DNA of 64,000 nt, taken from assembly GCA_965197495.1 (NCBI GenBank), contig OZ240210.1:7998481-8062480 (forward strand). The letters are read 5' to 3'. Shown here one piece after another: positions 16,290-56,873 of the stretch. Numbering within the stretch: position 1 is the stretch's first letter; every line of letters starts with the position of its first letter. The position numbers were made by a program, and so were the translations under genes. Source of the stretch: Candidatus Marinacidobacterales bacterium. Lineage in GTDB: Bacteria > Acidobacteriota > Vicinamibacteria > Marinacidobacterales > SMYC01. The notes under the pieces were generated by a model. That model was not told the DNA's origin. It made no database searches and saw nothing but the letters and a program-made list of their open reading frames with translations.

Positions 16290-16307
16290 CGCACGTCGAG
16301 CTTAAAC

Positions 16308-18033
16308 TGAAGTTCCTTGCTGAAAAAACCAAGATCCGGTGTTGATCCAATAAGATAGATGGAATCAATGGTGCTGGCTTCTGTCTACACGGTGATACCT
16401 TTGAGCAAGTCGTAGGCTCTCTGCTGTTTCGAGTCCGGAGTTGTCGTGACATCGAAGGTGGGCTCGTCGGGTCCGGCTTCCGGTCGCCGACATTTGTTTC
16501 GGACGATGTTGCTGAGAAGGCGCAGCAGCGTGCGGAAGCTGGAAGCTGGTCTCCCATCGTCAAGCTTCTTGGTGTGTATCTTGCGCAGGGCGGCCTCGGA
16601 GCGTTGCGCCGGAGCGACGGGGTCACGCTCGGCCTTCGCCTGCTGCTCCTCGTCAGAGAATACTAGCGGGCGCCAAACCTCCATCATGTGCCACAGGACG
16701 TAGTAGGCCAGCATGCACAAGAAGATGTGCGCCCGGACTCGGTTTTCGCGCCGGTGACGAATCGGCCGCACCTTTAGGTCCATGCTCTTGAAGGAACGAA
16801 ACGCCCTCTCGACCTGGGTCAGCAACTTGTAGCTGCGCACTGTGTCGTCGGTTTTCATCCGCTGCTCAGCAAGACTGGTGCGGATCACGTAGATGCCGTC
16901 AAGGGCAGCTTCCGTAGTGACCTTTGTGTCGTCGATTTCGAAGCTAAAGCTGTCGTCGCGAATGTCCAGCTTGAAGTGCTTGCCGACTTTGTACTTGTTG
17001 AGAACTTTGCCTACCCGCACACCGATTTTATCTTTACCATGCAGCTGACCTCGCCCGATCCGTTGGCGAATCCGTTCCAACTGCTTAACGATCGTCCCCA
17101 TGTGTCGCTTCCACCGCTGGAGCCGTTTGTTGGCGAGCTCAGAGTTGCCGTTGGCGAGGCGCGAGGCGTCGGCAGCCATCGTTGTCTCGTCTAGCTCGAA
17201 GTCGAAACCGTCGTCACGGATGTCGAGCCTATAGTACTTGCCGACCTTGTACTTGTTGAGGAGCTTTTTCACTGCAGCACGGATGTCCTCCTTGCCCTGC
17301 AAACGGCGCCGCTCGACCATCCGACAAACCTTCTCCAGCTCTTTGCAGGTTGCTTCGAGCAGAGCACGACGCTTGTGACGCCGCCTCTCGGCCAGCTCCG
17401 GATTGCGGCAAGCGACCAGCCTCTCGTTGGGGAAATCCGGGTGCGTCAACTCAAACAGGTTCCGCCTGTCGAATAGCCCCATCTGGATCACCCCATCGTT
17501 AATGAGCTTGCGAATCGGTTCGGGACGCAGAGCGGTAATCCAGTCGATACCGTCCATCTCCCGTAACTCGTCGATCTGGGTCTGGGTGATCATTCCGCGG
17601 TCGCCCACCATCACAAACTGCTCGATGCCGAACCGCTCTTGCGCATTTTCTACCTGAGGCAACAGCGTTTTGGGATCGCCCGTGTTGCCCTCAAAGACGG
17701 ATACCGACACGGGGATGCCGCGTTCGTTGGTCAGCAGGCCGTAGTTGACCTGCAGCTTGCCTTTCTTGCCGTCACGGTTGTATCCGAGCCTGGCCAGCGG
17801 ACAACTCACCCCCTCGAAGTAGCTTGAGGTTAGGTCATAGAGCGCGAGGCCGTCGTTTTGGAGATGGCGCGCCGCGAGTTTCTTTTCGATGACCTCCTGG
17901 CGTTTGAGAACCCAGTCCATGGCGGCATAGAGATCGTCTTCGTCGGCATCGCTCACCCCCAGGATTTCGGGCAGTGTGGTTGTGTGCCACCACAGGCTAG
18001 TCGCCAGCTTCGACTGCGGTTCGAGGATCCGGG
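16308..18033 (-). mobile_element. IS1634-family element copy 1, 3' portion (transposase aa ~112-663, ORF 16385..17956). It is separated from its 5' portion (24482..24973) by an inversion.
   Basis: It is >98% identical to the full copy 54656..56867, including the end CTGAAGTTCCTTGC. Homology stops at 18033 inside the tnp gene. Confidence 0.85.
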
Positions 18034-18425
18034 AGATCTGTGCTCGGAACCAGATAGAAATACTGAAGGGTCATGTGCGGCCTGAGCACGTGCACCTGTT
18101 GCTGAGCGTGCCGCCGAATTTGTCGCCGAGTCGAGTGATGCAGTTGATCAAGGGTAAGACGTCGAATCGTCTGATGCGCGACTTACGGACGATGCGGAAG
18201 GAGTTCTGGGGTCGGCACCTACGGGCACGGGGTTACTTCGTGGTGACAACGGGCAACGTGACGGATGAGGTGATAGCGAAGTATATAGAGTTGCAGGGTG
18301 CCGTGCCCCAGGACGACGATTCTTTCAAGGTCAGTGAGTAGTGAAACGAGGCAAGGACAAGCCGACTTTAGTCGGCGACGTGAACCCATCGCCTTTAGGC
18401 GATGGAGCGCACGCGCTCAGTCTTT
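18034..18425 (+). mobile_element. tnpA: IS200/IS605-family element fragment: tnpA C-terminal half (18034..18341, ...EICARNQIEILKGHVRPEHVHLLLSVPP...FWGRHLRARGYFVVTTG...) plus the right-end subterminal hairpins.
   Basis: The Y1 HUH transposase signature (HVHLL, YFVVTTG) is present. Hairpins ccgactttagtcgg and tcgcctttaggcga follow the stop. The matching N-terminal half is at 24974..25111 on the opposite strand. Confidence 0.75.
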
Positions 18426-18643
18426 CTTGTATATATATCAGGAGGGGCCTGTGGGCGCTCGTGGGAAACGCGAAGCGTTTTCCAAGCGATTGTGGAAAAC
18501 GCCGCTCCACGTTTGTACGTGCTCACAACCTTTCCCTAAACGCCTCTCTCGCCCGGAGTTTCCGGCGTTTTCCACAATCGCGGCAGCGTCCATAGGCCAT
18601 GCCCTCCAACACAAATCAGATCCCCCGAAACGACAGGAGAACC
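18426..18643 (-). mobile_element. Left terminal region of the ISL3-family element, including the inverted-repeat terminus (IRL) ending at 18643. The inversion displaced it from the ISL3 body at ~25.2-28.57 kb.
   Basis: Terminus GGTTCTCCTGTCGTTTCGGGG (reverse complement of 18623-18643) matches the right end GCCTCTCCTGCCATTTCAGTGG at 28570 in 15 of 21 positions. The 8-bp ACAGTTTT at 18644-18651 is duplicated as its reverse complement at 28571-28578. Confidence 0.55.
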
Positions 18644-20233
18644 ACAGTTTTTATCACGTCACGAGGATCGAATCACAGGGGTACTGAGCGGATTCGACCG
18701 GTTGGTGTTCCGCGGAACCCTACGCCACATTTCTTATACGGACGGCATGGGTAAGTACCTTTCCTACCAGAAAATCCTTCTGAAGGAGTTCGCGGAGTTC
18801 GCACTGCAGCGTACCTCCGAGCTCAAGCAGGCCTTGTATCAGCAGGCGGAGCGACTCGAGCGTCCGGTCGTCTATCTGGAGTCTTCCCGTAAGAACAAGG
18901 AGGCCATCGCACGCGAGATTGCACAACAAGACAATGTCCGCAGTGGTCTCATCGCAGCGCTGAGCTGCGTGGAACCTTGTATCACCTTCAGCATACGTCG
19001 CAACCGCCAGAAGAAGCGGTTGGAGCTCGTGCAATTCCTCAGAAAGTGCCTAAACTTTTACCACTACTGCATGGACCCTATTTTTGGTTTCATGCATGCC
19101 CGTATCCAAAGCTGGTTTCCATTCAATGTTCAGGTCTACGTCAACGGCCGTGAATGGCTCGCCGTTGAGATGGATAAGGCTGGCATTCAATATCGGCGCC
19201 GGGAAAACTGCTTTACCTGGGTTGAGGATGCCCACGCGGCACAGCAGCTTCTCGATGAGCAGCTCAAAACCAACTGGCCTCACATCCTGAATCGCCTGAG
19301 TCGATTCGTCAATCCATTGCAAGACAAATTATTCCCGCCGAGTAGCCTCGACTACTACTGGAGTGTCTACAGCAGCGAATGGGCCACCGACGTCACGTTT
19401 CGTAACAGCTCTAGCCTCGCGGAGATCTATCCCGCTCTTGTACATCATGCGATCACAAACTTTTCGAGCCCCGACGTGATGCGCTTTCTCGGAAAACGGA
19501 TTCGAACCGACTTTTCAGGGGAAGTCGTCAGCCGATTTCGCGACCGGCCCGAGGGTCTGCGTATCAAACATGCCCTCGACCTCAATTCCGTCAAACTCTA
19601 CGACAAACAAGGTTCCGTGCTCCGTGTGGAGACAACCATCCAGCGTGCCGAGGGTATGCGCTGCTACCGGCCAAAGGAAGGCGACCCCAACGGCCCTCTC
19701 GAGTGGCGTCCGCTCCGTCGTGGCATCGCAGACCTGCATCGTCGTGCCCAGCTCTCCCAGGACTCCAATGAGCGCTACCTCGACGCTCTCGCCGCTTGTG
19801 ATACCTCAACCCCACTCGGTCGACTCCTCGCTCGCGTCAGCCAAAAAACTCAATGGAATAGCTCCACCCTCCGAGCTCTTCGCCCTTGGGACGCTCTGGA
19901 CGCCCGACTCCTCGCCGCTATTTCCCGTGGAGAGTTTCATCTGCGAGGCTTTCGCAACAGGGAACTCCGTGCCTTGCTCTTTCCAAAGACTTCGGACGAC
20001 CCTCTCGAAACCAGGCGGCTAAGCGGACGCGTCACCCGGCTCATTCGCATCCTCCGAGCCCACCGTCTTGTCAAAAAGTTCCCAAAACTTTTCGCTACAG
20101 ACTCACAAAGCGCGGTCAGCAACTTTGCTCCGCATTACTTACCGCAAACTCTCTCTCCCTCGATAAACTCCACGCTGCTGCCGCATGATTTTTCTTCTTC
20201 TCAAAACAAGCTTTTCAGGGTTAGTAGTACAGA
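18644..20233 (+). mobile_element. 'ISx' copy A: an unclassified ~1.7-kb repeat element that lacks its first ~110 bp. ORF 18702..20336 encodes a ~530-aa protein 99% identical to 40321..41907, with a frameshifted C-terminus (A5G at 20074-20079 versus A7 in copy B).
   Basis: It is 99% identical at the nucleotide level to 40367..41951, with flank-dependent divergence at both ends. The missing 5' piece is at 28571-28680 on the other strand. Confidence 0.7.
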
Positions 20234-20483
20234 GAAAGCGAAAGCGAGAGCGAGGAAGAGCACTCGGCGGGCTCTATTGATGCTTCTGTGTTCGACGCTG
20301 CTAGCAGCGTCATCCCGGCGGACGGTGACGTCGTGAGCTCCCTGGAAGATCTCGTCGCGCCCAGCGGAAATGGTAAGTGTTTTCGAAACTCTGTGTCTCT
20401 GTGGGCATTCTTAAGGCGCCTCATGCACACGATTTGGGGAGCGGCCGAGCTTTCAGGTTTACCTGGATAGCATTAGTAGTACG

Positions 20484-21893
20484 GTGCGCTACGCTGATTT
20501 ATCATGGGCGCGCATGGCGAGCTTCTCCGAGTTCAGCACCCATCGACGGACAGCCGCGATTCTTCTCGGCGAAGGCACGTCGGCTGCCTATCTCGCAGGC
20601 GTCATGAGCGCGCTCAAGAATGCCGGCGTGCGTGTCGACATGATCCTCGGCAAAGGCGCCGGGGCACTCGTCGCGGTTTTCAGCTCCATCGATGCCGAAG
20701 AGCGACTTCATGGAGACGCGGGACTGCTGGCCCGGGCCAGTGGCGAACACCCATGGCGCTTGCGACCCTTATACAAGAAGATGCTTGCCTGTCTTCTGGT
20801 TGCACTGGCCGCATTTCTCTCGCCGGTTTTGTTCGGGCTCGCGGCCGTTCTCGCGCTTCCGCTTCAAGCCTTGGGCCGCCTTCTGTTGGGGGGGGCGGAG
20901 ACGGCGCTCCCGGGGGTCGGGGCGCAATGGTTGCCCGCGCTGTTAGAGGCCGCCGAGCCGGTCTATCTCCGCGTGATGGTGCTCCCGCTCGCTGCGCTGT
21001 GCGCGATTTGGGTCGCGTGGTGGCTATCGAGCTTCGCGCGGCAACGTGGCGCGCCCTCGCTTCCCGAGCTCTACGACCTCGAGCCGCTCGCGGCGCTCGT
21101 CGAGACCAAGCTATGGCAAGCTGTGCGGGGCGCGTCGACCGGCGATCGGCCACGGGAGCGAAGGGATATCGGCGGCGCCTATCAAGAACTTCTGTCGGGA
21201 AGCCTCGGGCAGCTCGGTTTTCGCGAGCTCGTCTTCTACGCTCTCGATACCGATAGCGGTCGCGAAGTCTCTTTTGCGCTCTTGAAGGATCATTTTCTCA
21301 AAAAGCTTTCATCGAACGGCGCGGGGCGAGCGCGGCGCCGGGAGACGATCGATCTCGCCAAAGACGGTGGCCCGCTATTGTTCGATGCTTTGATGGCGGC
21401 GTTGAGCCCAGTTGGCCTCGTGCCGACCGTGCCGATCAAGCTTCCGCTCGATACCACCTTCGGGGGCGAGGTTCACCGCTTCGCCGGGAGCCTCCTAACC
21501 GGCTCGAGCGCGGTTCAGGACGCCGTGGCCGCGGGCGCCGAACAAATCATCTATGTCGCCGGCTGCGCTCCCAGCGACCGCCCGGGCGGCAATGCGATCG
21601 AGCGGTTCATCGAGGCGTCGGTGCGGCGAACTTTGAGCGACGATCTCGCCGAAGCGACGAGACATACCGACCTCCCTGTTTTCCTGATCCGCCCCGACAA
21701 GCAACGACTGAACCCGTTCGAAGTGACGGGCCGCGCGCAGATTGGAAACGAGCGGCTCGACTTGAACGCGCTGATCGCGCATGGACGCCGCGACGCGCTG
21801 CGGCTGTTCGTAGAGCCCGTGCTGGGTGACGATGCTTCCGAGCACGACCGGAGCTTGATGAAGGTGCCGCAAGCGGGGCCTCGCGAGCTTTAG
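20484..21893 (+). CDS. Patatin-like phospholipase-family protein with degenerate motifs (GEG for GGG; GKGAGA instead of GxSxG) and two central TM helices. Probable start M at 20514.
   Basis: LLGEGTSAAYLAGVMSAL...ILGKGAGALVA has patatin-like spacing, but the nucleophile Ser reads Ala. The C-terminal region has DGG...D resembling the patatin Asp motif. Confidence 0.4.
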   Translation: MRYADLSWARMASFSEFSTHRRTAAILLGEGTSAAYLAGVMSALKNAGVRVDMILGKGAGALVAVFSSIDAEERLHGDAGLLARASGEHPWRLRPLYKKMLACLLVALAAFLSPVLFGLAAVLALPLQALGRLLLGGAETALPGVGAQWLPALLEAAEPVYLRVMVLPLAALCAIWVAWWLSSFARQRGAPSLPELYDLEPLAALVETKLWQAVRGASTGDRPRERRDIGGAYQELLSGSLGQLGFRELVFYALDTDSGREVSFALLKDHFLKKLSSNGAGRARRRETIDLAKDGGPLLFDALMAALSPVGLVPTVPIKLPLDTTFGGEVHRFAGSLLTGSSAVQDAVAAGAEQIIYVAGCAPSDRPGGNAIERFIEASVRRTLSDDLAEATRHTDLPVFLIRPDKQRLNPFEVTGRAQIGNERLDLNALIAHGRRDALRLFVEPVLGDDASEHDRSLMKVPQAGPREL

Positions 21894-21906
21894 GGTCCGG
21901 GCTGCG

Positions 21907-21960
21907 AGATCTAGAGAAAAGCGTAACGCAAAGGCGTCAAGGTTCAAAGACGCGAAGGTT
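21907..21960 (+). repeat. Solo copy of the MITE terminal repeat (aaaagcgtaacgcaaaggcg...caaagacgcgaagg) overlapping a hairpin gaaggttcaaaccttc. It lies 14 bp downstream of the patatin-like gene and may act as a terminator.
   Basis: A 20-nt and a 13-nt exact match to the 15216-15275 arm. The hairpin has a 6-bp stem. Confidence 0.4.
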
Positions 21961-21980
21961 CAAACCTTCAGCGCTGTACA

Positions 21981-22565
21981 ATGGGACCAGTTATGTCCAG
22001 TGTTCTCGATTTGACCTTTATCGGCCTCGCGGGGCTCTTTACGGTGTGGAACGTCTTTTTTCTAGCTCGCTACGCGCGATATCGGCGCCTCATGCCCACC
22101 GCCGAGCTCACGTGGCGGCCCACCCGGCCGTGGTTTTACAACATGTGCATCGGCATCGGTTTTTTCATGGTGAGCATGACGGCGTTGAGCCTCTTCGTTT
22201 TGGATAGGCCAATCCTCTCGAGCGTGGCCCAGGGCCTGATGGCCATCTACTACACGATCGCCTTTCCTCTCTCGTTTCAAATTCAACCTGGTTTCTACAA
22301 GTCGGGCATCTGGTTCGACCGCTCCTTCGTGCCTTATACGAAAGTGCGGCGTTTGGGGTGGCGCGAACAGCCGGACATCGTTCTGATCGTCACGAAGGAA
22401 ACAGGCCTGATGGAGCAGGACTACGCGCGGCTTCAAGTTCCGAGAGAGCGCTACGGCGAAGCGCGGCGCATTCTGGCGAGCCATATCGATGACCAGAGTC
22501 TCTCCATCGAAACGGGAATTCTGGGGCTCGACGAGGGCGACATGCCGGCGCAGGAGCGCGTATGA
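21981..22565 (+). CDS. Hypothetical integral membrane protein (194 aa, ~4 TM). It overlaps the start of the downstream HMT/MTHFR gene by 4 bp.
   Basis: Hydrophobic segments LTFIGLAGLFTVWNVFFLA, FYNMCIGIGFFMVSMTALSLFVL and LMAIYYTIAFPLSF. An ATGA overlap at 22562 links it to the next gene. Confidence 0.4.
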   Translation: MGPVMSSVLDLTFIGLAGLFTVWNVFFLARYARYRRLMPTAELTWRPTRPWFYNMCIGIGFFMVSMTALSLFVLDRPILSSVAQGLMAIYYTIAFPLSFQIQPGFYKSGIWFDRSFVPYTKVRRLGWREQPDIVLIVTKETGLMEQDYARLQVPRERYGEARRILASHIDDQSLSIETGILGLDEGDMPAQERV

Positions 22566-24412
22566 CGTCGTTTGGACGAGACGCCTTCCGAAAGCGGCTA
22601 TCATCGGCGCCGCTCGTTTGCGACGGCGCCATGGGCACGTCGCTCTACGGCAAGGGCGTGATGGTCAACCGCTGTTTCGACGAGCTCAACCTCTCGAATC
22701 GCGAGCTCGTCCGGTCGGTGCATCGTGACTACCTCGGCGTCGGTGTCGACATCCTCGAGACGAACACATATGGCGCCAACCGTTTCAAGCTCGAGTCTCA
22801 CGGGTTCAAAGACCGCGTCCGTGAGATCAACGAGGCGGGCGCGGCCGTCGCGAGAGACGCCATCGGGGATAAGGATGGGCCCGTTCTCGTTGCAGGTTCC
22901 ATCGGTCCGCTCGGAAAACCGATCGCGCCGATCGGAACGATTTCCGAAGAGGAGGCGCTCGCGAGCTTTGGCGAGCAAAGCGAGGGATTGATCGCTGGCG
23001 CTGTCGATTTCGCGATTCTCGAAACGTTCTCGGATCTGCGGGAGCTCGGTCTCGCCATCCGCGCGCTGCGCGAGGTGGCGCCCGATCTGGCGATCGTCGC
23101 GCAGATGACTTACGGCGACGACGGATCGACACCGCTCGGCGCCAAGCCCGAGCACGTCGCCCGCAAGCTCTCGGAGCTCGACATCGACGCCATCGGCGCG
23201 AATTGTAGCGTCGGTCCCGAGCTCATGCTGCGCGTCGTCGAGCGGCTTGCGACCGCGACGAAGCTTCCGATCTCCGTGCAGCCGAACGCCGGTCTCCCCG
23301 AGCTTGTCGAAGGACGCGTCATCTACTTGAGCTCACCCGAGTACATGGGCCATTATGCGAAGCGTTTCTTGAAGGCTGGTGCCACGATTCTCGGCGGCTG
23401 TTGTGGCACGGCGCCCGACCATATCGGCGCGATGGTCGGCGTCGTTCGCGCGCTCGGCCCCGCGCGAAAGCAAATCGAAGTCGCCCCCGCCGAAGAGCGC
23501 GTCGAGCGCGAGCCCGTGCCGCGCGAGAAAAAATCACGTCTCGCGAGAAGCCTTGGGCGCAAATTCGTCGTCTCGGTCGAGATGGATCCGCCCAAAGGCG
23601 CGGACCCGGGACTCTTCCTCGAGAAAGCGCAGTGGCTGAAAGAGAACGAGGTCGACTACATCAATGTCGGCGACGGCCCGCGCGCGAGCGCCAGGATGAG
23701 CGCGCTGAGCTTCGCCGTCCTTCTCGAGCAACGTGTCGGCTTGGAGACGATCCTTCACTATCAATGCCGCGACCGGAACCTCATCGGCATCCAGTCGGAT
23801 CTGCTGGGGGCGCAGTCACTCGGCTTGCGCAACATCCTCGCGGTAACAGGCGATCCCCCCAAGCTCGGAGATTACCCATATGCCACCGCGGTCTTCGACG
23901 TCGACTCCGTGGGCCTCACGAAGATCCTCGGACGGTTGAATCGTGGTCTCGATCTTTCGGGAAATCCTCTCGGTCTTGCGCTACCGTTCCACATCGGTGT
24001 CGGGGTCAACCCTGGAGCGACCGACTTCGACGCCGAGATTCAGAAGTTCCAGAACAAAGTGGAAGCGGGCGCGGAATATTGCTTGACGCAGCCCGTCTAC
24101 GAGGCGCGCTATCTCGAACGGTTTCTCGAAGCGATCGAGAGCTACAGGATCCCCGTGCTCGTGGGCATCCTGCCGCTCGTGAGCTCACGCAACGCCGAGT
24201 TTCTCCACAACGAGGTGCCCGGCATGGCCGTCCCGCAGGAGATTCGCGACCGGCTAAGGAGCGCCTCGACGAAAGAAACCGCCCAGCAAGCCGGCGTGGA
24301 TATCGCGCGCGATGCTTTGCGAGCCGCGCGAGACCTCGCCGACGGTGCTTATGTGTTGCCGCCGTTCAATCGATTCGAGCTCGCGGTCAAGGTCATCGAA
24401 CACATTATCTGA
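22562..24412 (+). CDS. Bifunctional homocysteine S-methyltransferase / 5,10-methylenetetrahydrofolate reductase (N-terminal Hcy-binding domain fused to a C-terminal MetF domain).
   Basis: The N-terminus LVCDGAMGTSLY...GVDILETNTYGAN...GCCGT is an S-methyl_trans Hcy domain with Zn-binding Cys residues. The C-terminus HYQCRDRN...LAVTGDPP...VGVNPG is an MTHFR fold. Confidence 0.8.
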   Translation: MTSFGRDAFRKRLSSAPLVCDGAMGTSLYGKGVMVNRCFDELNLSNRELVRSVHRDYLGVGVDILETNTYGANRFKLESHGFKDRVREINEAGAAVARDAIGDKDGPVLVAGSIGPLGKPIAPIGTISEEEALASFGEQSEGLIAGAVDFAILETFSDLRELGLAIRALREVAPDLAIVAQMTYGDDGSTPLGAKPEHVARKLSELDIDAIGANCSVGPELMLRVVERLATATKLPISVQPNAGLPELVEGRVIYLSSPEYMGHYAKRFLKAGATILGGCCGTAPDHIGAMVGVVRALGPARKQIEVAPAEERVEREPVPREKKSRLARSLGRKFVVSVEMDPPKGADPGLFLEKAQWLKENEVDYINVGDGPRASARMSALSFAVLLEQRVGLETILHYQCRDRNLIGIQSDLLGAQSLGLRNILAVTGDPPKLGDYPYATAVFDVDSVGLTKILGRLNRGLDLSGNPLGLALPFHIGVGVNPGATDFDAEIQKFQNKVEAGAEYCLTQPVYEARYLERFLEAIESYRIPVLVGILPLVSSRNAEFLHNEVPGMAVPQEIRDRLRSASTKETAQQAGVDIARDALRAARDLADGAYVLPPFNRFELAVKVIEHII

Positions 24413-24481
24413 TTCGTGCGTGGCCGGTGCTGCTTCCGGCTGCCCGCTACCTGCACATCATTCAAGTCGCACCGCTTTAAG

Positions 24482-24973
24482 CTGAAGTTCTGCCCAGTAA
24501 GCCCTCCCACGCTTCGGTAAAGTACCTTTAGTCGCATGGAGTTACAGCGCTAGAGGTGTGATTTTTGCCTGCAATTGGTAGCCATGTTGTATTGTATTTT
24601 TTATTGTTATATATGCCTATATAGTGTATATAGTAGCCATGCACATCGATATCGTGCCCAACCGCAACTCCAAACCCGCCGTTTTGCTCCGTGAGTCCTA
24701 TCGGGATGCCAAGAGCAAGAAACCGCGCAAGCGCACACTTGCCAACCTGTCCAAACTGCCGAGCGAGCAGGTCGATGCCATCCGACGCATACTCAAGGGG
24801 CAAAAGCTCGTTTCGCTCGAAGACGCCTTCGAAATCGTCGAGAACGGCTCCCGGCACCATGGCCACGTCGACGCGGTGCTCAGTGCCATGAGACAGCTCG
24901 GTTTCGAAAAACTCGTTGGCTCTCGACACTCACCAGAGCGGGATTTGGTCGTGGCCATGGTAGTCGCCCGGAT
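24482..24973 (+). mobile_element. IS1634-family copy 1, 5' portion (end CTGAAGTTCTGCCC, leader, and transposase aa 1-117 from ORF 24624..).
   Basis: It matches the reverse complement of 56376..56867 of the full copy. Homology ends at 24973 (CCCGGAT). It complements the 16308..18033 fragment exactly, with a 7-bp overlap. Confidence 0.85.
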
Positions 24974-25195
24974 GAGATCCCGGAGACGAACCGCTACATC
25001 CCCTCTCAAGGCCGGCTTGCGGTACTTCGTGATAAATACGAAGTGATAGTTTAACTGATACGTCGTGTGCGATGATTTACGATATCCTTTCACCTGGGGA
25101 TCGTACCCCAAGCCTCCTAAAGGCTTCGCCTAAAGGCGAGGGATTTCAACCATCCCCGAGTGGGACATTAATTCATATGGAATAAGGAAGGGGGG
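24974..25195 (-). mobile_element. tnpA: IS200/IS605 fragment: tnpA N-terminal half (25111..24974, MGYDPQVKGYRKSSHTTYQLNYHFVFITKYRKPALRGDVAVRLRDLIR) plus left-end hairpins (tcgcctaaaggcga).
   Basis: It contains the Y1 transposase N-terminal HUH region (YHFVFITKYR). Joined through the shared ATCCGGG to 18034.., it gives an intact ~140-aa TnpA. Confidence 0.7.
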
Positions 25196-25744
25196 GCTCG
25201 ATTAGTGGAGGCTATGGAAAACGCCCTTCCAGGCTTCGAAGAGAACTCAGTCGTGAGCAAGGTCTGAACGACCAGAACCGTGGGGGCGTTTCCCACAGCC
25301 TCGTCTCCCGCTGAGGGGCAGTGGCATTTGGTGAGGCCCGTGGGTTGAGAGGGTAAGCCATGTGTAGATGCGCATCGGCGAGAACGCTAGAATCTTTTTT
25401 TCCGAAAGAGAAAAGAGCGTTCCCGCGATGCGCGTTACTACGTTAGTCAACAAGCTCATCGGATTGCAAGGCCTGTGGGTCCGAGGTTTCCACTTCCAGG
25501 CGGACAAAGCCAGAGTGGTGGTGGATGTAGTACCACGGAGGAGGAAGCCTCTGTGCGGGATTTGCGGACGAAAGGTCCGCAAGAACAAAGATCGCTACAA
25601 TCGCTACTGGCGGCACTTGGACCTGTTCGGAGTCCGGACCTATCTTCGCTACTCGATCCGACGAGTGGTATGTCGGCGGTGTGGAGTGGTCAGAGAAAAG
25701 GTGCCTTCCCTCTGTGCCAACATCGCTGAGACACTTCGCCCCTT

Positions 25745-27385
25745 GAAATTAGTGTAGAGGGCGGAGGAGGATCAATGCATGAGTATGTTGATTGAGAGAG
25801 AGACCTCGGCGGGATCGGAGGGAGCCCGTAGGGCGACTGGAGATCCCGCCGGCCGCGATGCGGCGGGGGTCCCGGATCCCGAAGTGAGCGAGCAAGCGAA
25901 GCGTCGACGCTTTACCGCGGAGTACAAGCTGCGGATAGTGCGTGAGGCCGATGCCTGCAAGGGTGACGGTGACGTTGCTGCTCTTCTGCGTCGAGAGGGC
26001 CTGTACTCGTCGCATTTATCGAGTTGGCGCCGCCAACGTGACGAGGTCGCCAAAGCGGGGTTGGCGTCGAGAAAGCGAGGCCGGAAGGCAAAGGCCGAGG
26101 ATCCACGGGTCAAGGAGCTCGAGCGCGAGAACGCCCGGCTCCAACGTCGCCTGGCTCGGGTGGAGACAATGTTGGAGACCAAAAAAAAACCTCCGAATTA
26201 CTGGGGATCCCCCTGAATCCACTCGACAGCTACGAGAACGACTGATGGTGGCGGCCGAGGAGCTGGCGGGGCAGATTGGGCAGACGACGGAAGCCTGCGA
26301 GGCTCTGGGTGTGGCTCGTTCCACGCTGTATCGCAGGCGCCAGGTGACGCCCGAACCGAAGCGGCGTCCTCGGCCGCACCGAGCCTTCGACGAGACTGAG
26401 CGCGAGGAAGTCCTCGGGGCCTCGCACTGTGAGCGGTTCGTCGACAAGGCGCCCGCCCAGGTGTGGGCCACGCTTCTGGACGAGGGAACCTACCTCTGCT
26501 CGATTCGCACGATGTATCGGATTTTGGAGGAGCACGGCGAGGTCCGAGAGCGCCGGAACCAACGGCGCCATCCGAACTACACGAAGCCGGAGCTGCTGGC
26601 CGAAGCGCCCAACCAGGTTTGGTCGTGGGATATTACGAAGCTTCGTGGCCCCGTCAAGTGGACCTACTACTACCTCTACGTCATCCTCGACATCTTCTCC
26701 CGCTACGTGGTTGGCTGGATGCTGGCTCACCGAGAAAGTGCGGCGCTCGCGCAACGCCTCATCGCCGAGAGCTGTCGCAAGCAGGACATTGAACCCGACC
26801 AGCTCACCCTTCACGCGGACCGTGGCAGCTCGATGAGAAGCAAGCCCGTGGCTCTGCTCCTGGCTGACCTCGGAGTTACCAAGACCCACTCCAGACCTTA
26901 TGTCTCGAACGACAATCCCTACTCCGAGTCCCAGTTCAAGACGATGAAGTACTGCCCTCAGTTTCCGAGCCGTTTTGGTTCCGCCGAAGACGGCCGGCTG
27001 TTCTGCGGCGGTTTCTTCGACTACTACAACTACGAGCACCGGCACTCAGGAATCGGCTTCATGACGCCGGCCGACGTTCACTATGGTCGCGCCGAACAGC
27101 TCACCACCGCTCGGCGCCAGATCCTTCTCGAAGCTCATCGGACTCATCCCGAACGCTTCGTTCGCGGAACGCCACAACCTCCCGTTTTGCCTCCTCAGGC
27201 TTGGATCAACCCGCCGACGGAGAAAACGACGCTCCTGAATGCCGCACAAGCCACTCTCGCGGCGGCGTCCATACCTGGGGTACCCCCTTTTTCTGCTCCA
27301 CGAAACGAGATCTCGATCGATGCAGATGTGGACCGCACCGGCGCCACGAGCCTCCCGACGCTAATCGAGGCTCACTAAATGCAGC
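25745..27385 (+). mobile_element. IS3-family element nested in the ISL3 transposase gene. orfA is 25779..26216 (HTH + leucine zipper). orfB is ~26186..27378 (DDE integrase core, e.g. NQVWSWDITKL...DNPYSESQF...YNYEHRHSGIG). An A9 run at 26182-26190 is at the orfA/orfB junction.
   Basis: This is the classic IS3 two-ORF organisation with an A-run slippery site. In this sequence orfB lies in the +1 frame relative to orfA, not the canonical -1 frame. Confidence 0.85.
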
Positions 27386-27654
27386 TCGCGAGTGTCTCAA
27401 AGTTGTTGACACGTACCGCTTGGGCCGACAAGGGAAGCCGCTTTACCAAAAGCTTCGAACAAGAGGTAGCGTGGCTGGCACAGAGGACGGACGTCAGCGC
27501 CGTAGCGAACTATTTCCGAGTGACGTGGCGTTCGGTGCGACGGATCATCCAGCGAGTGGTTGCCGAGCAGCGGGATGAGCGGCGCGAGCTCGATGGATTG
27601 CGGGTGATTGGGATGGACGAGATCAGCTACCGCAAACGCCACAAGTACTTAACC

Positions 27655-27840
27655 CTAATCGCAAAATCTTCGAAGCACGAAAACGCGAAACAGCCGCACT
27701 GGGCGCAGGCGAGAAGCTCGTGCTGGGGCACCCGCTCGCCGCCACTATAGGTGATTCTGCACGGTGTATGCAGAACCTGGAAAAGGTGCTATTCACGGGG
27801 CCAAAGACCTCAGACACGGTGACGTTTATTTGCGATTAGG
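27655..27840. repeat. 186-bp region: a 17-bp perfect inverted repeat (aaccctaatcgcaaa / tttgcgattagggtt) bracketing a ~155-bp insert that interrupts the ISL3 transposase reading frame.
   Basis: Removing 27670-27825 restores ...HKYLTL|VVIDHLSGRVVW.... It is either a hairpin-type micro-insertion or a local inverted duplication. Confidence 0.45.
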
Positions 27841-28570
27841 GTTAACAGTGGTAATAGACCATCTCAGCGGCCGGGTCGTCTGGGCGGGAAAGGAGCGCAA
27901 GGCCAAGACGCTGCTGCGGTTTTTCCGCAAGCTCGGACCACAAAGAGCCGCGGAGCTCGAAGCGGTCAGCATGGACATGTGGGAGCCGTACATAACTGTC
28001 GTCGGCAAAAAGGCTCCTCAGGCACGGGTGATCTTTGACCGCTTCCACATCGTCAAGCATCTGAACGAGGCCGTGGATAAGACCCGGCGCGAGCTGGTGC
28101 GCGAGCTCAAAGGGACTGCCCGGCGGAACCTCAAAAACACCAAGTTTCCCCTTCTCAAGGCCAAACACAACCGCAGCGCGAAAGACAAACGGGTGCTCCG
28201 CGAGCAGGTGCGAGCTAATCGTCGCCTCTACCGCGCCATGCTTCTGCGCGACGACTTCATGGACCTCTACACCTACAAAACCGAGACATGGGCCAAGAAG
28301 TTTCTCCGAGGATGGCTGCGGCGCGCTATGAGCTCGAGGATAGAGCCCGTCAAACGCGCGGCGAAGATGATCCGCAGCCACTTCGATGGCGTCATCGCGT
28401 GGGTCACGTGGAGACTCAGCAACGGCCGACTCGAAGGAATGAACAACAAAATCCGGCTGCTGAGCCACCGCAGCTTTGGACTCCACTCTGCCGAAGCTCT
28501 CATCAGTCTCGTCTACCTAAACTGTGGCGGTCTCACCCTCGAGAGGATCCACTGAAATGGCAGGAGAGGC

Positions 28571-28680
28571 AAAACTGTTTCACGGCGTCCTCCAGCGTGG
28601 GAAAGGGTTGTCGTGACATCTTCCTACTCTGGATGTGGCGCCGTGTCTACTTCACGCCCAGATTGTGCATCGAGCCCGCG
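28571..28680 (-). mobile_element. Detached 5' end of ISx copy A (first ~110 nt, including codons 1-16 MSRQPFPTLEDAVKQF). The ISL3 insertion separated it from 18644..20233.
   Basis: It matches the reverse complement of 40262-40371, then abuts the ISL3 right end. ACAGTTTT is duplicated at both ISx/ISL3 junctions. Confidence 0.65.
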
Positions 28681-28721
28681 TTGGGCTGACGTGGTGAGCG
28701 AGCCGACAGCGAAGAGTCAGG

Positions 28722-29087
28722 ATGAAAGACTTTCGAGATCTAAAGGTTTGGGAGAAGGCCCATCAGCTAGTCAAGGGTTTGTACCAGGCCACCGGCCACT
28801 TCCCAACCGAAGAGAAGTTCGGCTTGACGGCTCAGATGCGCCGAGCGGCGGTTTCCATCCCGGCGAATATTGCTGAGGGCTGTGGACGCGGTTCAGACCG
28901 GGATATGGCCCGCTTTCTTCAAATGAGTATGGGCTCAGCAAGCGAGCTCGAATACGAACTGCTCCTTGCCCACGAGCTCGGGTTGCTCGATAGCCAAAGT
29001 CTTCAGGAGCTTGCCGAGCGAACCACCGAGGTCAAGCGTATGCTCGCCTCTCTCATCCGGAGGCTCGAATCCGGAGCTGACCGCTGA
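28722..29087 (+). CDS. Four-helix-bundle protein of the TIGR02436 family ('23S rRNA intervening-sequence protein', Avd-like fold), copy 1.
   Basis: MKDFRDLKVWEKAHQLVKGLY...FPTEEKFGLTAQMRRAAVSIPANIAEG...GSASELEYELLLA is a family signature. It is 99% identical to 39853..40218 on the minus strand. Confidence 0.8.
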   Translation: MKDFRDLKVWEKAHQLVKGLYQATGHFPTEEKFGLTAQMRRAAVSIPANIAEGCGRGSDRDMARFLQMSMGSASELEYELLLAHELGLLDSQSLQELAERTTEVKRMLASLIRRLESGADR

Positions 29088-29192
29088 ATGCTGACCGCTG
29101 ACCGCTCGCGGCGGAGCCGTCCTCCAATTTGGTTGCGGCTCCGCCGCGCTGTGCCTCTGTGGCCATCCCCTTTGGTTGCGGCCACAGGCTGC
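29075..29192 (+). repeat. Hairpin repeat element copy a. The motif gctgaccgctga(atg)ctgaccgctgaccgctcg is followed by a 12-bp GC stem GCGGCGGAGCCG with a 16-nt loop TCCTCCAATTTGGTTG, then ...CGGCTCCGCCGC and gctgtgcctctgtggccat. It starts inside the last codons of the 4HB gene.
   Basis: Copies with the same core are at 39735-39866 (minus), 41931-42030 and 42169-42298. Confidence 0.7.
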
Positions 29193-29288
29193 GCTTGGAC
29201 GAAGTTCGAAAGTGTGAACAAGATCCTCGTTTCTGAGCAGTTAGATGGTAGTGGCGTCTGCCATTCTGCGCCTGTGTATAATCCGCTA

Positions 29289-31238
29289 ATGAGCGAAGGA
29301 GGAGTTCATCGAAAGCTGCGGCGAGCGCTCCGCGACGCGGTCCAAGAGAATTATGGCGTTCTGATCGACGACATCGCGCAAGAGCGACCGCCGAAATCGA
29401 GCTTGGGAGATGCAGCTTTTCCAGTAGCTTTCGATCTCGCTCGGATCGCGAAAATGGCTCCGCGAAAGATCGCTGAGATCTTGGCCCCCGCTCTAGAAAG
29501 CGTCCAAGGTGTGGAACGCGTCGACATCGCGGGCGCGGGCTATCTCAACGTTTTCCTCGACCGAGCAAGCTACGTCGAGGACTTCCTCGCGCCGAGAGCC
29601 GGAGACGAGCCCGAAACGCACGGAAAGACGATCGTCGAGCACACGAACATCAATCCGAACAAAGCCGCTCATATCGGCCATCTCAGAAACGCGGCGCTCG
29701 GCGACAGCTTCGTGCGCGTATTGCGGTACTGCGGTCGCGACGTCGAAGTGCAGAACTACATTGACGATACCGGCGCGCAGGTCGCGGACGTCGTGGTCGG
29801 CTTTCTCCATATCGAGAAGAAAACGCTCGACGACGTGCGCGCCATAGCCGATGAAGGGCGTTTCGACTACGTTTGCTGGGATCTGTATGCACGTGTCTCC
29901 GGTTTCTACGCGGAGGATCGTGAGCGTCTGAAGCTTCGCGAGAACACGCTCAAGGCAATCGAAGAAGGCGCTGCCCCGGAAGGACCCCTCGGCGAGCTGA
30001 TCGCCGAGACGATCGTGCGCTACCACCTCGCGACGATGGAGCGCATCGACGTCCGCTACGACCTTCTGCCTTGGGAGAGCGATATTCTTCAATTGCATTT
30101 CTGGGAACGCGCCTACGAGCTCCTCAAAGAAAAAAAAGCCATCCGGCTCGCGACGAAAGGCAAGAACGAAGGCTGCTGGATCATGGGCCTCGGCACACAA
30201 GGCGAGGAGGCGAGCGAACAAGACGAAAAAGTCATCGTGCGCTCGAACGGAACCGTGACTTACGTCGGCAAGGACATCGCCTATCAAATGTGGAAGTTGG
30301 GGCTTCTCGACCGCCACTTCCAATACGAGACCTTTCACCGCTACCCCGACGGGCACACGGTGTGGTCGACGACGGCGAACGGCGCGAAGGACGCGCCGAG
30401 CTTCGGTGACGGCGAGAGTGTCTACAACGTCATCGACGTTCGGCAAGCCTACCTTCAAGACATCGTGCAGCGCGGCGTCGCCTTGCTCGCTTCGGAACGT
30501 GCGCGAGACCGTTCCCATCACTTTTCTTACGAAATGGTCGCTCTCACACCGGCGACCTGTCGCGAGCTCGGCTTCCCCCTAAGCCCCGAGGAAGAGAAGA
30601 AACCTTACCTCGAAGTGTCGGGACGCAGAGGTCTCGGCGTGAAAGCGGACGATCTGCTCGGCGCACTCGAGGCCAAGGCGCGCGCCGAGGTCGACAAGAG
30701 AAACCCCGAGTTGACAGGAGACGAGCAACGCGACATCGCCAAGGCGATCGCCCGAGGAGCGCTACGCTACTTCATGGTCAAGTACACGAAGAACAAGGTC
30801 ATCGCCTTCGATTTCGATGAAGCCTTGAGCTTCGATGGCGACAGCGGTCCCTATCTGCAATACGCCGCGGTGCGCGCCGCCAAGATCCTTCAGAAGATGA
30901 GCACTTCGTCCGTGGACATCACTTTTCCAGAAACGTTGGCCGAGAGCTTCGAAACCCTCGGCGCCGCGGAAGCGGACGAGATTTGGAGTGTCATGTACGA
31001 AGCGATGGAGCTTCGAGCGATGACGGAGACGGTCTTGCGCACCGAAGAGCCCGCCCATTTGGCGCGATTCGCTTTGGGCCTCGCGCAAAAGTTCAACGGG
31101 TTCTACCACCGCTTCAAGATCGCCACCGAGCCGAACGAAGCGAAGCGCGTGCTGCTTCTTCTAGTGGTACAGCTGTTTCACTGTCAGCACAAAACGGTGC
31201 TCGCGCTGATGGGAATCCCGGTTCCAGACCGTATGTGA
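29289..31238 (+). CDS. argS: Arginine--tRNA ligase. The ORF is open from 29088, but the probable start is MSEGG at 29289.
   Basis: HIGH motif PNKAAHIGHLRNAALGD, class-I aaRS architecture, and a C-terminal anticodon-binding DALR-like region. Confidence 0.9.
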   Translation: MSEGGVHRKLRRALRDAVQENYGVLIDDIAQERPPKSSLGDAAFPVAFDLARIAKMAPRKIAEILAPALESVQGVERVDIAGAGYLNVFLDRASYVEDFLAPRAGDEPETHGKTIVEHTNINPNKAAHIGHLRNAALGDSFVRVLRYCGRDVEVQNYIDDTGAQVADVVVGFLHIEKKTLDDVRAIADEGRFDYVCWDLYARVSGFYAEDRERLKLRENTLKAIEEGAAPEGPLGELIAETIVRYHLATMERIDVRYDLLPWESDILQLHFWERAYELLKEKKAIRLATKGKNEGCWIMGLGTQGEEASEQDEKVIVRSNGTVTYVGKDIAYQMWKLGLLDRHFQYETFHRYPDGHTVWSTTANGAKDAPSFGDGESVYNVIDVRQAYLQDIVQRGVALLASERARDRSHHFSYEMVALTPATCRELGFPLSPEEEKKPYLEVSGRRGLGVKADDLLGALEAKARAEVDKRNPELTGDEQRDIAKAIARGALRYFMVKYTKNKVIAFDFDEALSFDGDSGPYLQYAAVRAAKILQKMSTSSVDITFPETLAESFETLGAAEADEIWSVMYEAMELRAMTETVLRTEEPAHLARFALGLAQKFNGFYHRFKIATEPNEAKRVLLLLVVQLFHCQHKTVLALMGIPVPDRM

Positions 31239-31247
31239 GTTCAATAA

Positions 31248-32024
31248 CTACTGGACCAGGCCGACGTCGATCAGTGGCCAGATTCGCACGAAGGCTTTGC
31301 CGTAAATGTAGCGCTCGGGCACCAGGCCCCAGCTTCGGCTGTCATTGCTTCCGCGCCGATTGTCTCCCAAGACGAAATAATGTCCGGGGCGAATCTCTTG
31401 GCTCGGGTGAGACCTGCGGTCGGCATGCGCGATCGTTACATAGGATTCGTCGATCTGAACCCCATCGACGAAAACGTCCCCGCTTTTGATCTCGACGGTT
31501 TCACCGGGTAGCGCGACTACCCGTTTGATGAAAGACAGCTCTGGGTCTTCCGGATACCAAAAGACCACGACATCTCCACGTGCGATATCGCTGAAGTGAT
31601 ACATGAACTTGTTGACCAGAATCCGCTCGCCGTCTTGAAGCTCCGGGGACATACTCGTGCCCTGCACTTTGAACGCCTGAACCACATAAGTGATTAGCAG
31701 CACGCAGACCACGACCGCGATGGCCAAGTCGTGAATCAGCTCGACGAGCGAGTGAAACGTGCCTTGTTTTGGCGGTGCATCCTCTCCTGCTTCAGGCGGG
31801 TCGAGTGTGTCACGAGGGCTCTCTACCTGCTTCGGCTCGCGCGACAGGGCAGGGTCAGGCTCGAGAACAGCAGCGGCTCGGGACGGGATTGCGGGCTCGG
31901 GCCTGACGGCCTCGCCTTTGGCTTCGTCTTCAATGGCGGTTTTCGGCATCTCGGTGTTCGGGATTGCGATTTTCGACGTCTCGATATTCGGCTCGTTCGG
32001 TGGTAAGCGCGTTGGTGTCGTCAA
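31248..32024 (-). CDS. lepB: Signal peptidase I (S26) with a Pro/Ala/Glu-rich N-terminal extension.
   Basis: GTSMSPEL (the Ser box)...VVFWYPEDPELSFIKRVVALPGE...YFVLGDNRRGSNDSRSWGLV. Confidence 0.8.
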   Translation of the reverse strand: MTTPTRLPPNEPNIETSKIAIPNTEMPKTAIEDEAKGEAVRPEPAIPSRAAAVLEPDPALSREPKQVESPRDTLDPPEAGEDAPPKQGTFHSLVELIHDLAIAVVVCVLLITYVVQAFKVQGTSMSPELQDGERILVNKFMYHFSDIARGDVVVFWYPEDPELSFIKRVVALPGETVEIKSGDVFVDGVQIDESYVTIAHADRRSHPSQEIRPGHYFVLGDNRRGSNDSRSWGLVPERYIYGKAFVRIWPLIDVGLVQ

Positions 32025-33139
32025 AGGTTCCTCATCACGCGGGTGCCGGCGATGCGATCGTGGAGTCCGCGTTTGTCGTCAGAAAAGGCGATCAGGAGGA
32101 ACCCCAATCCCATTATAAGGAAGCTTGCGACGTAGCCTAGTGCTCTGAGCGCGGCGCGTTGATAGCCGATCGGGCTTTCTCCCTCTTCCGATTCAACGAC
32201 GATAGCGAGGAGGCTCTTGCCAGGTGTCGCTCCACGATACCCCCAGAAGAAAACGAAATAGATGAGACAGAGCATCGGAAACGCGATCGCAAGGAGCGGG
32301 AGGCTGAAAGAAGGCACGGAGCGAAGCCCGGTATCCGTGGCGCCCAACGCAAAAGTCCCCCAAACCAACGTCGTCAAAAAGAGAGGAGTCCCCAAGATCA
32401 TGCCGTCCACGACCGCGGCGACAAGTCGAACACCGAACCCAGCGGGCTCTTCGTTCTTCTTGGCGCGCACACCCGGTTTCCAGGGTTTATCGGGCCGGTC
32501 GGGATCGGTGTTCTTGAGATCGAGCTCCGCGGCATCGGCGGGGTGCGGCGACGACACCTTGTCTTTAGCGGGTAGCTCGTGGCCACAATGGCCGCAGAAC
32601 TCCGCAGGGAGCTGTACGCGGCGACCGCAAGCGGTACAAACGGCGACCTGCTTTCTGGCTAGCTCCGCGCCGCACTTCCGGCAAAAACGATCTTTGGTGA
32701 GCGCAGGCGCATCACAGGACGGGCAGCGCAACTTCCCGCTCGGGCTACCCTTGTCCGCTTCGGCGTTTCGCACATCGGACGCGGCTTTCGCGCTCGCCTC
32801 GCCGTCCTCCGCGGGCGGATCGGTCGCGGCGGCCCCCAAACCTCGCGGAGTGTCGAGTTGAAAGAGCAGACGAGCGGAGCCGATCGCGACGAGATCGCCG
32901 TCTCGCAAAGTGTGCTCGCTATCCACCTTGTCGCCGTTCACCAGCGTGCCGTTAGCGCTGCCGTTGTCGCGCAGGACGAAAACATCGTCGCGCTGCTCTA
33001 GAATCGCGTGGCGGCGCGAGACCATCGAGTCCGACAAGACGAGATCATTCGACGGATCACAGCCAATCGAGATCACTCGAGCAGCAATCGAGATCTCTTT
33101 CTTGTTGCCGGAGGTCGGGTTGACGACGAGCTTGGGCAA
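32021..33139 (-). CDS. FHA domain – double zinc-ribbon – RDD-family membrane protein.
   Basis: N-terminal FHA (ISIGCDPSNDLVLSDSMVSRRHAIL...GSANGTLVNG). CPSC...CRKCG / CTACG...CGHCG zinc ribbons. C-terminal RDD (GATPGKSLLAI...RGLHDRIAGTRV). Confidence 0.7.
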   Translation of the reverse strand: MPKLVVNPTSGNKKEISIAARVISIGCDPSNDLVLSDSMVSRRHAILEQRDDVFVLRDNGSANGTLVNGDKVDSEHTLRDGDLVAIGSARLLFQLDTPRGLGAAATDPPAEDGEASAKAASDVRNAEADKGSPSGKLRCPSCDAPALTKDRFCRKCGAELARKQVAVCTACGRRVQLPAEFCGHCGHELPAKDKVSSPHPADAAELDLKNTDPDRPDKPWKPGVRAKKNEEPAGFGVRLVAAVVDGMILGTPLFLTTLVWGTFALGATDTGLRSVPSFSLPLLAIAFPMLCLIYFVFFWGYRGATPGKSLLAIVVESEEGESPIGYQRAALRALGYVASFLIMGLGFLLIAFSDDKRGLHDRIAGTRVMRNL

Positions 33140-33144
33140 AGTGT

Positions 33145-54644: not shown

Positions 54645-54655
54645 CACGGATTAGA

Positions 54656-56867: not shown

Positions 56868-56873
56868 ATTAGA

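Follow-up and report, generated by a model that had tools for sequence, protein, structure and literature searches.

Insertion sequences (IS) of the ISL3 family encode a DDE transposase, duplicate 8 bp of their target and have imperfect terminal repeats beginning with GG. Those of the IS200/IS605 group use a Y1 HUH transposase, TnpA, and move as single strands by peel-and-paste, and IS110/IS1111 and IS91/ISCR elements are target-specific and lack classical inverted repeats or duplications. Here, we analyze a locus in 64,000 nucleotides of a Candidatus Marinacidobacterales bacterium (assembly GCA_965197495.1, contig OZ240210.1, positions 7,998,481 to 8,062,480; hereafter the window, to which all coordinates refer unless a contig is named), where a preliminary description had reported nested insertions at 18426-28680. 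We are confident that transposable elements are nested here at three levels and that an illegitimate inversion subsequently disrupted the nest. An element termed ISx contains an ISL3-family element, which contains an IS200/IS605-family element, an IS3-family element and a miniature element. The earlier reconstruction proved essentially right, now at base-pair resolution. The nest as such is ordinary; its bottom layer, ISx, is the notable part and merits its own follow-up.

The nested elements

The window has two copies of ISx, each with an accessory gene and one large open reading frame (ORF):

28571-29153, minus strand: left part of ISx copy A, with the left-end hairpin motif CACAGCGCGGCGGAGCCGCAACCAAA at 29153-29128 and the first ~16 ORF codons
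28722-29087, plus strand of the window: four-helix-bundle gene of copy A, 121 amino acids (aa), TIGR02436/PF05635
18644-20234, plus strand: right part of ISx copy A, with the remaining ORF and the right end ...GTTAGTAGTACAGAG, placed by tiling on copy B
39789-41953, plus strand: ISx copy B, the uninterrupted reference, 2,165 bp, with the left-end motif at 39789-39812
39853-40218, minus strand: four-helix-bundle gene of copy B, TIGR02436/PF05635
40321-41907, plus strand: ORF of copy B, 528 aa (ORF call)
41940-41953, plus strand: right end of copy B, TTAGTAGTACAGAG, from the right-end motif

When the window is compared with itself by BLAST, 18644-20235 matches 40362-41954 on the same strand (99.5% identity) and 28571-29161 matches the reverse complement of 40369-39781 (99.3%). 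The two pieces of copy A tile copy B with an overlap of exactly 8 bp, ACAGTTTT, which occurs once in copy B (40362-40369). In copy A this sequence stands at 18644-18651 and, as its reverse complement (AAAACTGT on the plus strand), at 28571-28578. It flanks an ISL3-family element with termini at 18643 and 28570, whose imperfect inverted repeats read GGTTCTCCTGTCGTTTC inward from the first and GCCTCTCCTGCCATTTC inward from the second. The ISL3 is now in four pieces:

18421-18643, minus strand: ISL3 left end, comprising the inverted repeat of that side and the initial 223 bp of the leader, separated from the rest by the inversion and matched in L001 (see below)
25167-25707, plus strand: remainder of the leader and the N-terminal zinc-ribbon part, with the transposase start codon at 25429
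27419-27652, plus strand: helix-turn-helix (HTH) segment of the transposase, beginning with the right copy of CTT and finishing with the left copy of TTAA
27842-28570, plus strand: DDE domain and right inverted repeat, ending ...GAAATGGCAGGAGAGGC at 28570

The reference for this element is L001, a metagenome contig of a close relative that was located via the ISx protein and whose ISL3 contains neither IS200, IS3 nor the miniature element. There, ISL3 abuts the same position of ISx as in the window (GTGAAACAGTTTT/GGTTCTCCTG, the slash marking the junction) and maps colinearly to the reverse complement of 18421-18643 and then to 25167-25707, 27419-27653 and 27842-28554. Successive pieces overlap by 1, 3 and 5 bp, which fixes the boundaries of the inserts and their duplications. 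The segment 18421-18643 is the true left end of ISL3, being 99.6% identical to L001 1138-1360, the left end of the ISL3 of that contig. Once the three inserts are removed, the element measures 1,719 bp, encodes an uninterrupted 406-aa transposase and differs from the L001 copy at 6 of 1,703 positions. The three pieces of the transposase ORF match, in Pfam, Zn_ribbon_ISL3 (PF14690, 2e-11; 25368-25757), HTH_Tnp_ISL3 (PF13542, 4e-15; 27379-27750) and DDE_Tnp_ISL3 (PF01610, 3e-64; 27764-28555). These domains, the imperfect inverted repeats and the 8-bp target duplication place the element in the ISL3 family.

The inserts in ISL3 occupy the following positions:

18034-18420, plus strand: 3' part of the IS200/IS605-family element, with TnpA residues ~40-140 and the right-end hairpins (NF033573; 97% identical to L107 216-611)
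24974-25166, minus strand: 5' part of the IS200/IS605-family element, with the left-end hairpins and TnpA residues 1-~40 (empty site in L001)
25708-27418, plus strand: IS3-family element, 1,711 bp, with OrfA at 25779-26216, OrfB with its rve domain to 27378, and a CTT duplication
27653-27841, no strand assigned: 189-bp miniature inverted-repeat element with 13-bp perfect terminal repeats, CCCTAATCGCAAA, and a TTAA duplication

The IS200 element (~590 bp in total) entered the ISL3 leader in the orientation opposite to the ISL3 gene and without a target duplication. The insertion point lies 3' of TTAA(T), at a distance of 223 bp from the left inverted repeat. The empty site of IS200 in L001 reads AAGAAAGA/TTAATTC, with a 1-nt ambiguity, and TTAAT stands 5' of the left end both in the window and in L107, an intact relative that is 96-97% identical to the local IS200. 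TnpA matches NCBIfam NF033573 (E=1.2e-25; coding 18036-18341), and this Y1 HUH protein, the subterminal hairpins, the lack of inverted repeats and duplication and the short motif 5' of the insertion assign the element to IS200/IS605. IS3 lies between the zinc-ribbon and the HTH of ISL3, flanked by copies of CTT at 25705-25707 and 27419-27421 that are single in L001. Its proteins match NF033516 (4.7e-55) and rve PF00665 (2e-22; coding 25779-27378), and an OrfA with an HTH, an OrfB with an rve core and a duplication in the 3-4-bp range are those of the IS3 family. Alternative IS3 ends at TG...CA (25713-27411) were rejected in favor of those set by the L001 empty site and the CTT duplication. The miniature element splits the ISL3 transposase between the HTH and DDE domains, and the TTAA copies that flank it (27649-27652 and 27842-27845) are also single in L001. 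Short, non-coding, with terminal inverted repeats and a target duplication, it has the features of a miniature inverted-repeat transposable element. Self-BLAST revealed no second copy of it in the window.

The order of most of these events can be read from the nest and from L001. ISx is older than ISL3, because ISL3 duplicated ISx sequence. ISL3 is older than IS200, IS3 and the miniature element, because all three sit within it and L001 has none of them, and IS200 is older than the inversion, because the inversion cuts its tnpA. In the corresponding sequence of events, a 2.17-kb ISx-family element, with its 528-aa ORF, its divergent four-helix-bundle gene and a hairpin at its left end, was first present on the minus strand, just upstream of argS. 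A 1,719-bp ISL3 then transposed into codons 14-16 of the ISx ORF, leaving as its 8-bp duplication of ACAGTTTT the usual signature of DDE cut-and-paste or staggered cuts. Three elements, of IS200/IS605 type, IS3 type and the 189-bp miniature type, entered ISL3, and an exchange between inverted copies of a microhomology flipped part of the nest (see below). Going by what is established for these families, ISL3 (8 bp) and IS3 (3 bp) would have moved by standard DDE transposition and IS200 by single-strand Y1 transposition without a duplication, and the miniature element may have been mobilized in trans.

Most of what the preliminary description had claimed about these insertions stands: ISL3 lies in ISx between an 8-bp duplication, has its termini at 18643 and 28570 with the proposed inverted repeats, reaches into 18426-18643, and hosts an IS200 in its leader. 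Its IS3 was rightly placed at the junction of the zinc ribbon and the HTH, with bounds (25745-27385) that fall ~30 bp short of the actual ones. A small hairpin insert was also rightly seen, although its size (~170 bp), repeats (17 bp) and limits (27655-27840) needed correction. Four layers of nesting had been counted, where the depth is three and was produced by four insertion events, and the interruption of copy A, correctly attributed to ISL3, lies at about nt 581 and not at nt ~110. The proposed chronology holds for ISx, ISL3 and then the inserts, and for IS200 preceding the inversion; the order of IS3, which had been placed before the inversion, and of the miniature element relative to it is undecidable.

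The inversion

An inversion that had to be undone was part of the preliminary description, which was silent on the IS1634-family element at the second breakpoint and on the 8-bp microhomology exchange. The features concerned are these:

18034-24973, no strand assigned: inverted segment of ~6.9 kb, with breakpoints ambiguous within 7-8 bp of microhomology
16302-18033, minus strand: 3' 1,732 bp of IS1634-family copy A, with the C-terminal 523 aa of the transposase at 16385-17956 (NF033559)
24478-24973, plus strand: 5' 496 bp of IS1634-family copy A, with the transposase start at 24640, now opposite in orientation to the 3' part

Each breakpoint joins one half of IS200 tnpA (from 18034 and from 24974 onward, respectively) to one part of the IS1634-family element, which is IS4-related and whose DDE transposase is of IS1634 type (NF033559, 1.5e-84; PF01609, 8e-12). 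Within the inverted segment lie three chromosomal genes (20484-24412), most of ISx copy A and the left end of ISL3, bounded by the 3' part of IS200 on one side and by the 5' 496 bp of IS1634 copy A on the other; the latter are 98.6% identical to the reverse complement of 56376-56871. Both junctions carry the microhomology GATYCGGG, as GATCCGGG at 18026-18033 and as CCCGGATG (the reverse complement of CATCCGGG) at 24966-24973. Across the breakpoint, L107 reads ...CGGGATCTGATTCGGGAGATCTG... and the intact IS1634 copy C (54651-56871) reads ...GAGGATCCGGGCGAC...; hence, both elements had GATYCGGG, in inverted orientation, before the event. Re-inverting the segment in silico, with the crossover within the microhomology, aligns IS1634 copy A with copy C end to end (2,221 bp, 99.05% identity, 0 gaps) and IS200 with L107 end to end (593 bp, 97.0%, 0 gaps), and brings ISx copy A, ISL3 and all inserts onto one strand in the expected order. 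Since re-inversion restores both elements without gaps, the inversion is a clean reciprocal illegitimate event and not recombination between IS copies. A naive re-inversion with breakpoints at the edges of the microhomology gives +7/-7 bp. A 7-bp duplication with filler at the junctions was nonetheless ruled out, as L107 has four more codons (RLRDLIREICAR) and a clean microhomology.

We infer that microhomology-mediated illegitimate recombination caused the inversion. A reciprocal exchange at the inverted copies of GATYCGGG in IS200 tnpA and in an IS1634 transposase gene ~7 kb away would have flipped ~6.9 kb. As a result, the three chromosomal genes now lie on the far side together with most of ISx, the left end of ISL3 and IS200 from its 3' part, and the genes of IS200 and IS1634 were both inactivated.

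The flanks could at first sight be explained in another way, by homologous recombination between two ISL3 copies, one in ISx and one in IS1634, or by intramolecular replicative transposition of ISL3, either of which would leave hybrid ISL3 copies around the inversion. Each ISL3 end does have half of ISx beside it, half of IS1634 stands at each breakpoint, and a 7-bp sequence is found inverted at both junctions. Yet the sequences from 18034 and from 24974 onward are halves of IS200 tnpA and not ISL3 inverted repeats, 18421-18643 and 25167-28570 are complementary, non-overlapping parts of a single ISL3, and the 7 bp are a microhomology common to IS1634 and IS200 and not a target duplication. The IS200 sequence within the breakpoints refutes both variants, to which we give practically no credence.

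Another concern is that the inversion might be an assembly artefact or a minority variant, the genome carrying the nest in colinear form. Such a doubt is natural in a region dense in multi-copy IS. It can be addressed with L106 (ENA ERZ25072075 contig_57), an independent second assembly reached through the window proteins. L106 equals 18606-34412 with 1 mismatch and reproduces the 24973/24974 junction, IS3, the miniature element and the junction of ISL3 with ISx. The break of this assembly, at 18606, falls within the left end of ISL3; of the two junctions, it covers only the second. Moreover, mis-joins normally occur in long repeats, and here the exchange took place at 8 bp of microhomology at otherwise unique positions of two unrelated elements, was exactly reciprocal and neither gained nor lost a base. 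We consider an artefact or minority variant very improbable and retain the nest broken by a genuine inversion.

Some observations do weigh against this reconstruction. The 18033/18034 junction is seen in the window only, as the second assembly begins at 18606. With an identity of only 96-97% between L107 and the local IS200, the two mismatches inside and next to the microhomology are not assignable. The ISL3 of L001 lacks the last 16 bp of its right inverted repeat, and a second ISx copy comes after it. As for L001 itself, its positions 1138-3049 hold the truncated ISL3, joined via a few odd bases to a fragment of a four-helix-bundle gene and a second complete ISx. This contig (2x coverage) is therefore not a clean ancestral state; it may be a tandem ISx pair with a deletion, or a chimeric contig.

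The locus shows that one intact reference copy suffices to read to the base a history of four insertions and an inversion. It also shows that an inversion in an IS-dense region need not come from homologous recombination between IS, 8 bp of microhomology having been enough here. For this lineage, the exact ends and duplications of an ISL3, an IS3, an IS200 and a miniature element are now available. Elsewhere in the window, further IS1634-family copies at 50160-52248 and 54651-56871 are 94% identical and inverted around ~2.4 kb, in a composite-transposon-like arrangement; copy A is 99% identical to the second of them.

The ISx element

ISx is larger than had been proposed. The preliminary description gave it 1.69 kb from 40262, and it extends over ~39789-41953 (2.17 kb), that is, ~480 bp further to the left, including the 121-aa four-helix-bundle gene. 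Relatives with 74% protein identity have the same divergent four-helix-bundle gene in two genomic contexts with a common left boundary. In the distant clade P0080, a 2.23-kb unit is 99.9% identical over at least 4 different flanks, with sharp common boundaries and a PDDEXK_3 gene in the corresponding place. ISx is thus found with constant ends in different flanks. A scan of the genome contigs for other copies gave one distant locus only; members of the family beyond the window are found at loci L002-L102.

The ends of the element were surveyed at 80 metagenome loci; the proteins encoded there share only ~50% identity with the ISx protein of the window. The left end consists of a hairpin and then an ACCA-like tail. 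Its motif, CACAGCGCGGC-loop-GCCGCAACCAAA, was present in all 37 loci with enough upstream sequence, always distal to the small accessory gene where one exists. At the right end, the motif TTAGTAGTAC was found 38-131 nt past the stop codon in 54 of 66 loci, against ~5 expected by chance, and was followed by AGAG in 27 of these 54; the right-end consensus is GTTAGTAGTAC, most often then AGAG. Left flanks often finish in CACAGAG(N1-3). No terminal inverted repeats were found in the three clades examined, and a 41-bp inverted repeat around copy B is due to a solo left end next to it and is not a terminal repeat. Nor was a target-site duplication common to the flanks of identical copies, although left and right flanks are shuffled between contigs in the P0080 clade, which makes their pairing in this search unreliable. 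In the window, the left end forms a strong DNA hairpin (-23.3 kcal/mol, z = -4.6), and a right-end hairpin is not supported (z = +1.8). The left end at 39789-39835 has a GCGGC/GCCGC stem followed by AACCAAA and superficially resembles a tRNA acceptor minihelix with its ACCA tail; the window copy stretches this stem to 18 bp (-23 kcal/mol).

Several derivatives of ISx retain only its ends. At ~1860-2130 of L074, a ~300-bp non-coding miniature runs from a left end to a right end in tandem behind a full copy, the right end of which is separated by AT from the left end of the miniature. In L079 (~2375), a left end follows immediately on a right end, GTAGTACAG/CGCGGCC, which could be a tandem or circle-type junction. 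The window has remnants too, namely a solo left end at 42169-42261 (~95 bp) and a right-end/left-end junction at 41954-42050 that abuts copy B. Seen more broadly, 41927-42050 holds, on the minus strand, two solo ends linked by one G, a right end from a different ISx variant and a left end. The pair directly adjoins the right end of copy B and yields a 108-bp palindrome. The sequences at 41927-42050 and 42169-42261 look like remnants of tandem or repeated insertion at one site. Near copy A, within 20236-20485, a solo right-end-like TTAGTAGTAC stands at 20474-20482, just ahead of a 469-aa ORF. Beside the right end of copy A, the 155 bp at 20240-20394, between ACAGAG and CTCTGT, are in the opposite orientation in L001 (4619-4774).

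The large ORF is the only gene that all ISx elements have in common. An accessory gene stands between it and the left end in 12 of 41 loci with enough upstream sequence (among them L008 693-1127 and L023-L094). It encodes either a four-helix-bundle protein, 23S_rRNA_IVP/bAvd-like (PF05635/TIGR02436), as in the window, or, in other clades, a PDDEXK_3 protein (PF13366). This suggests that these two families of orphan genes ride on ISx.

The ISx protein family

The protein encoded by ISx is very common. A word-indexed search found at least 7,988 proteins at E<=0.001 among 8,000 scored candidates, and the 120 matches listed are mostly on 1.7-2.5-kb contigs and named only "hypothetical". A full HMMER scan of cluster representatives (50% identity) gave 11,266 at E<=1e-3, 6,172 at 1e-10 and 1,811 at 1e-30. 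Distant plasmid homologues (23-29% identity) are annotated as ArsR regulators or hypothetical. At the thresholds used, the protein matched no Pfam, NCBIfam, PHROG or PADLOC family. Weak winged-helix matches occur at the C terminus in 22 of 34 relatives, and PDB sequences searched with a profile gave no match. AlphaFold2 models reached a predicted local distance difference test (pLDDT) of 85 for the full length and of 83 for residues 12-300 (the N-terminal 289 aa). Foldseek, run with the full model against PDB and BFVD and with the N-terminal 289 aa against PDB, returned 0 matches at E<=1e-3, save for local winged-helix similarity. In none of these sequence and fold searches was a DDE, DEDD, HUH (Y1/Y2), serine-recombinase or tyrosine-recombinase domain recognized. 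Rfam, run over the whole window, matched no family, which is not a test for bridge or seek RNAs.

The members of this family are ~1.7-2.2 kb long, with a single conserved protein of ~516 aa in which ~430 N-terminal aa of unrecognized fold precede a C-terminal winged helix. In our view, the chances are about even that ISx is a very large undescribed family of autonomous mobile elements and that its ~516-aa protein represents a new class of transposase or recombinase. By analogy with described elements, we would put at roughly one in two a mode of insertion that is orientation-specific and duplication-free, beside CACAGAG-type repeats, and in which the 516-aa protein would act on the left-end hairpin and on the right-end motif. 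The protein would presumably be what catalyzes the movement. We found no description of the end motifs, of the accessory families on such elements or of a corresponding new IS family in a literature search that left subscription journals mostly uncovered, so that novelty is unproven.

ISx could instead be non-autonomous, either a pair of chromosomal genes that was duplicated or a cassette that another enzyme moves in trans, with the 516-aa winged-helix protein acting as a regulator, in line with the NCBI annotation of its distant homologues. The lack of a detectable transposase or recombinase domain, the ArsR-family or hypothetical annotation of the plasmid homologues and the lack of terminal inverted repeats and of a target duplication are all in agreement with this. 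Still, a gene pair or passive cassette accounts poorly for near-identical relatives with sharp common boundaries in several flanks, for two DNA end motifs that are kept among proteins ~50% identical, and for homologues found mostly on contigs of 1.7-2.5 kb, as expected of repeats that break assemblies. The existence of a miniature derivative and of abutted right-end/left-end junctions, and the large ORF being the only gene common to all elements, also argue against it, and we regard it as unlikely.

The wider value of the locus lies in ISx, whose 11,266 cluster representatives in public data carry no annotation beyond "hypothetical" or "ArsR regulator". Signs of its mobility are the conserved ends, the several contexts, the miniature derivatives and the tendency to break assemblies. 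If the protein is a transposase, a common class of bacterial mobile DNA is now invisible to IS annotation. The 23S_rRNA_IVP four-helix-bundle and PDDEXK_3 families would then gain a vehicle, which would help explain their spread.

Other features of the window

The ORF of ArgS (29088-31238) has 716 aa, ~110 aa more than its cluster mates (603-606 aa), and its NCBIfam match begins at residue 73. Because the additional residues are read out of the ISx left-end and repeat region, they probably reflect an error of ORF calling caused by the insertion. At 34371-34533, ~18 tandem copies of a 9-bp unit, CTCAACTGG (the last copies being CTCAACCGG), lie within long ORFs on both strands.

Comparison with known systems

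The locus resembles the nested IS clusters of IS-rich genomes, where elements lie within elements, their own duplications give a relative chronology and rearrangement follows. It differs from them in that the rearrangement was an exchange at 8 bp of microhomology between unrelated IS genes, and not homologous recombination between IS, and in that the bottom layer is an unclassified element. The ISL3 is typical of its family in its zinc-ribbon, HTH and DDE_Tnp_ISL3 domains, its length of 1,719 bp, its imperfect inverted repeats of ~17-25 bp and its AT-rich 8-bp duplication. It is unusual in the long leader of ~450 bp ahead of the transposase start, and the window copy has been inactivated by three insertions and split by the inversion. 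The IS200 insert conforms to IS200/IS605 in its Y1 transposase, its subterminal hairpins and its insertion 3' of a short motif without duplication.

For ISx, the likeness to IS200/IS605 is one of analogy only: its ends are asymmetric, the left one with a hairpin, it has neither terminal repeats nor a duplication, and its orientation is fixed with respect to a short target motif. Unlike IS200/IS605, its protein has no Y1_Tnp/HUH match by sequence or fold, and its right end in the window has no stable hairpin. With IS110/IS1111 and IS91/ISCR it shares insertion in one orientation beside a repeated short sequence (of CACAGAG type), left and right ends that differ, and abutted right-end/left-end junctions. 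In contrast to these groups, it has no DEDD/Transposase_20 or Y2 HUH domain, and its protein is larger and has a winged helix at its end. Hence, ISx does not belong to the IS200/IS605, IS110 or IS91 types, although its presumed mode of insertion would resemble theirs. Its small gene, finally, belongs to the families of the 23S rRNA intervening-sequence/bAvd genes (PF05635/TIGR02436, in the window) or of PDDEXK_3 (PF13366, in other clades). On ISx, these genes have neither a reverse transcriptase beside them, as in diversity-generating retroelements, nor an rRNA context; here they appear as the cargo of a mobile unit.

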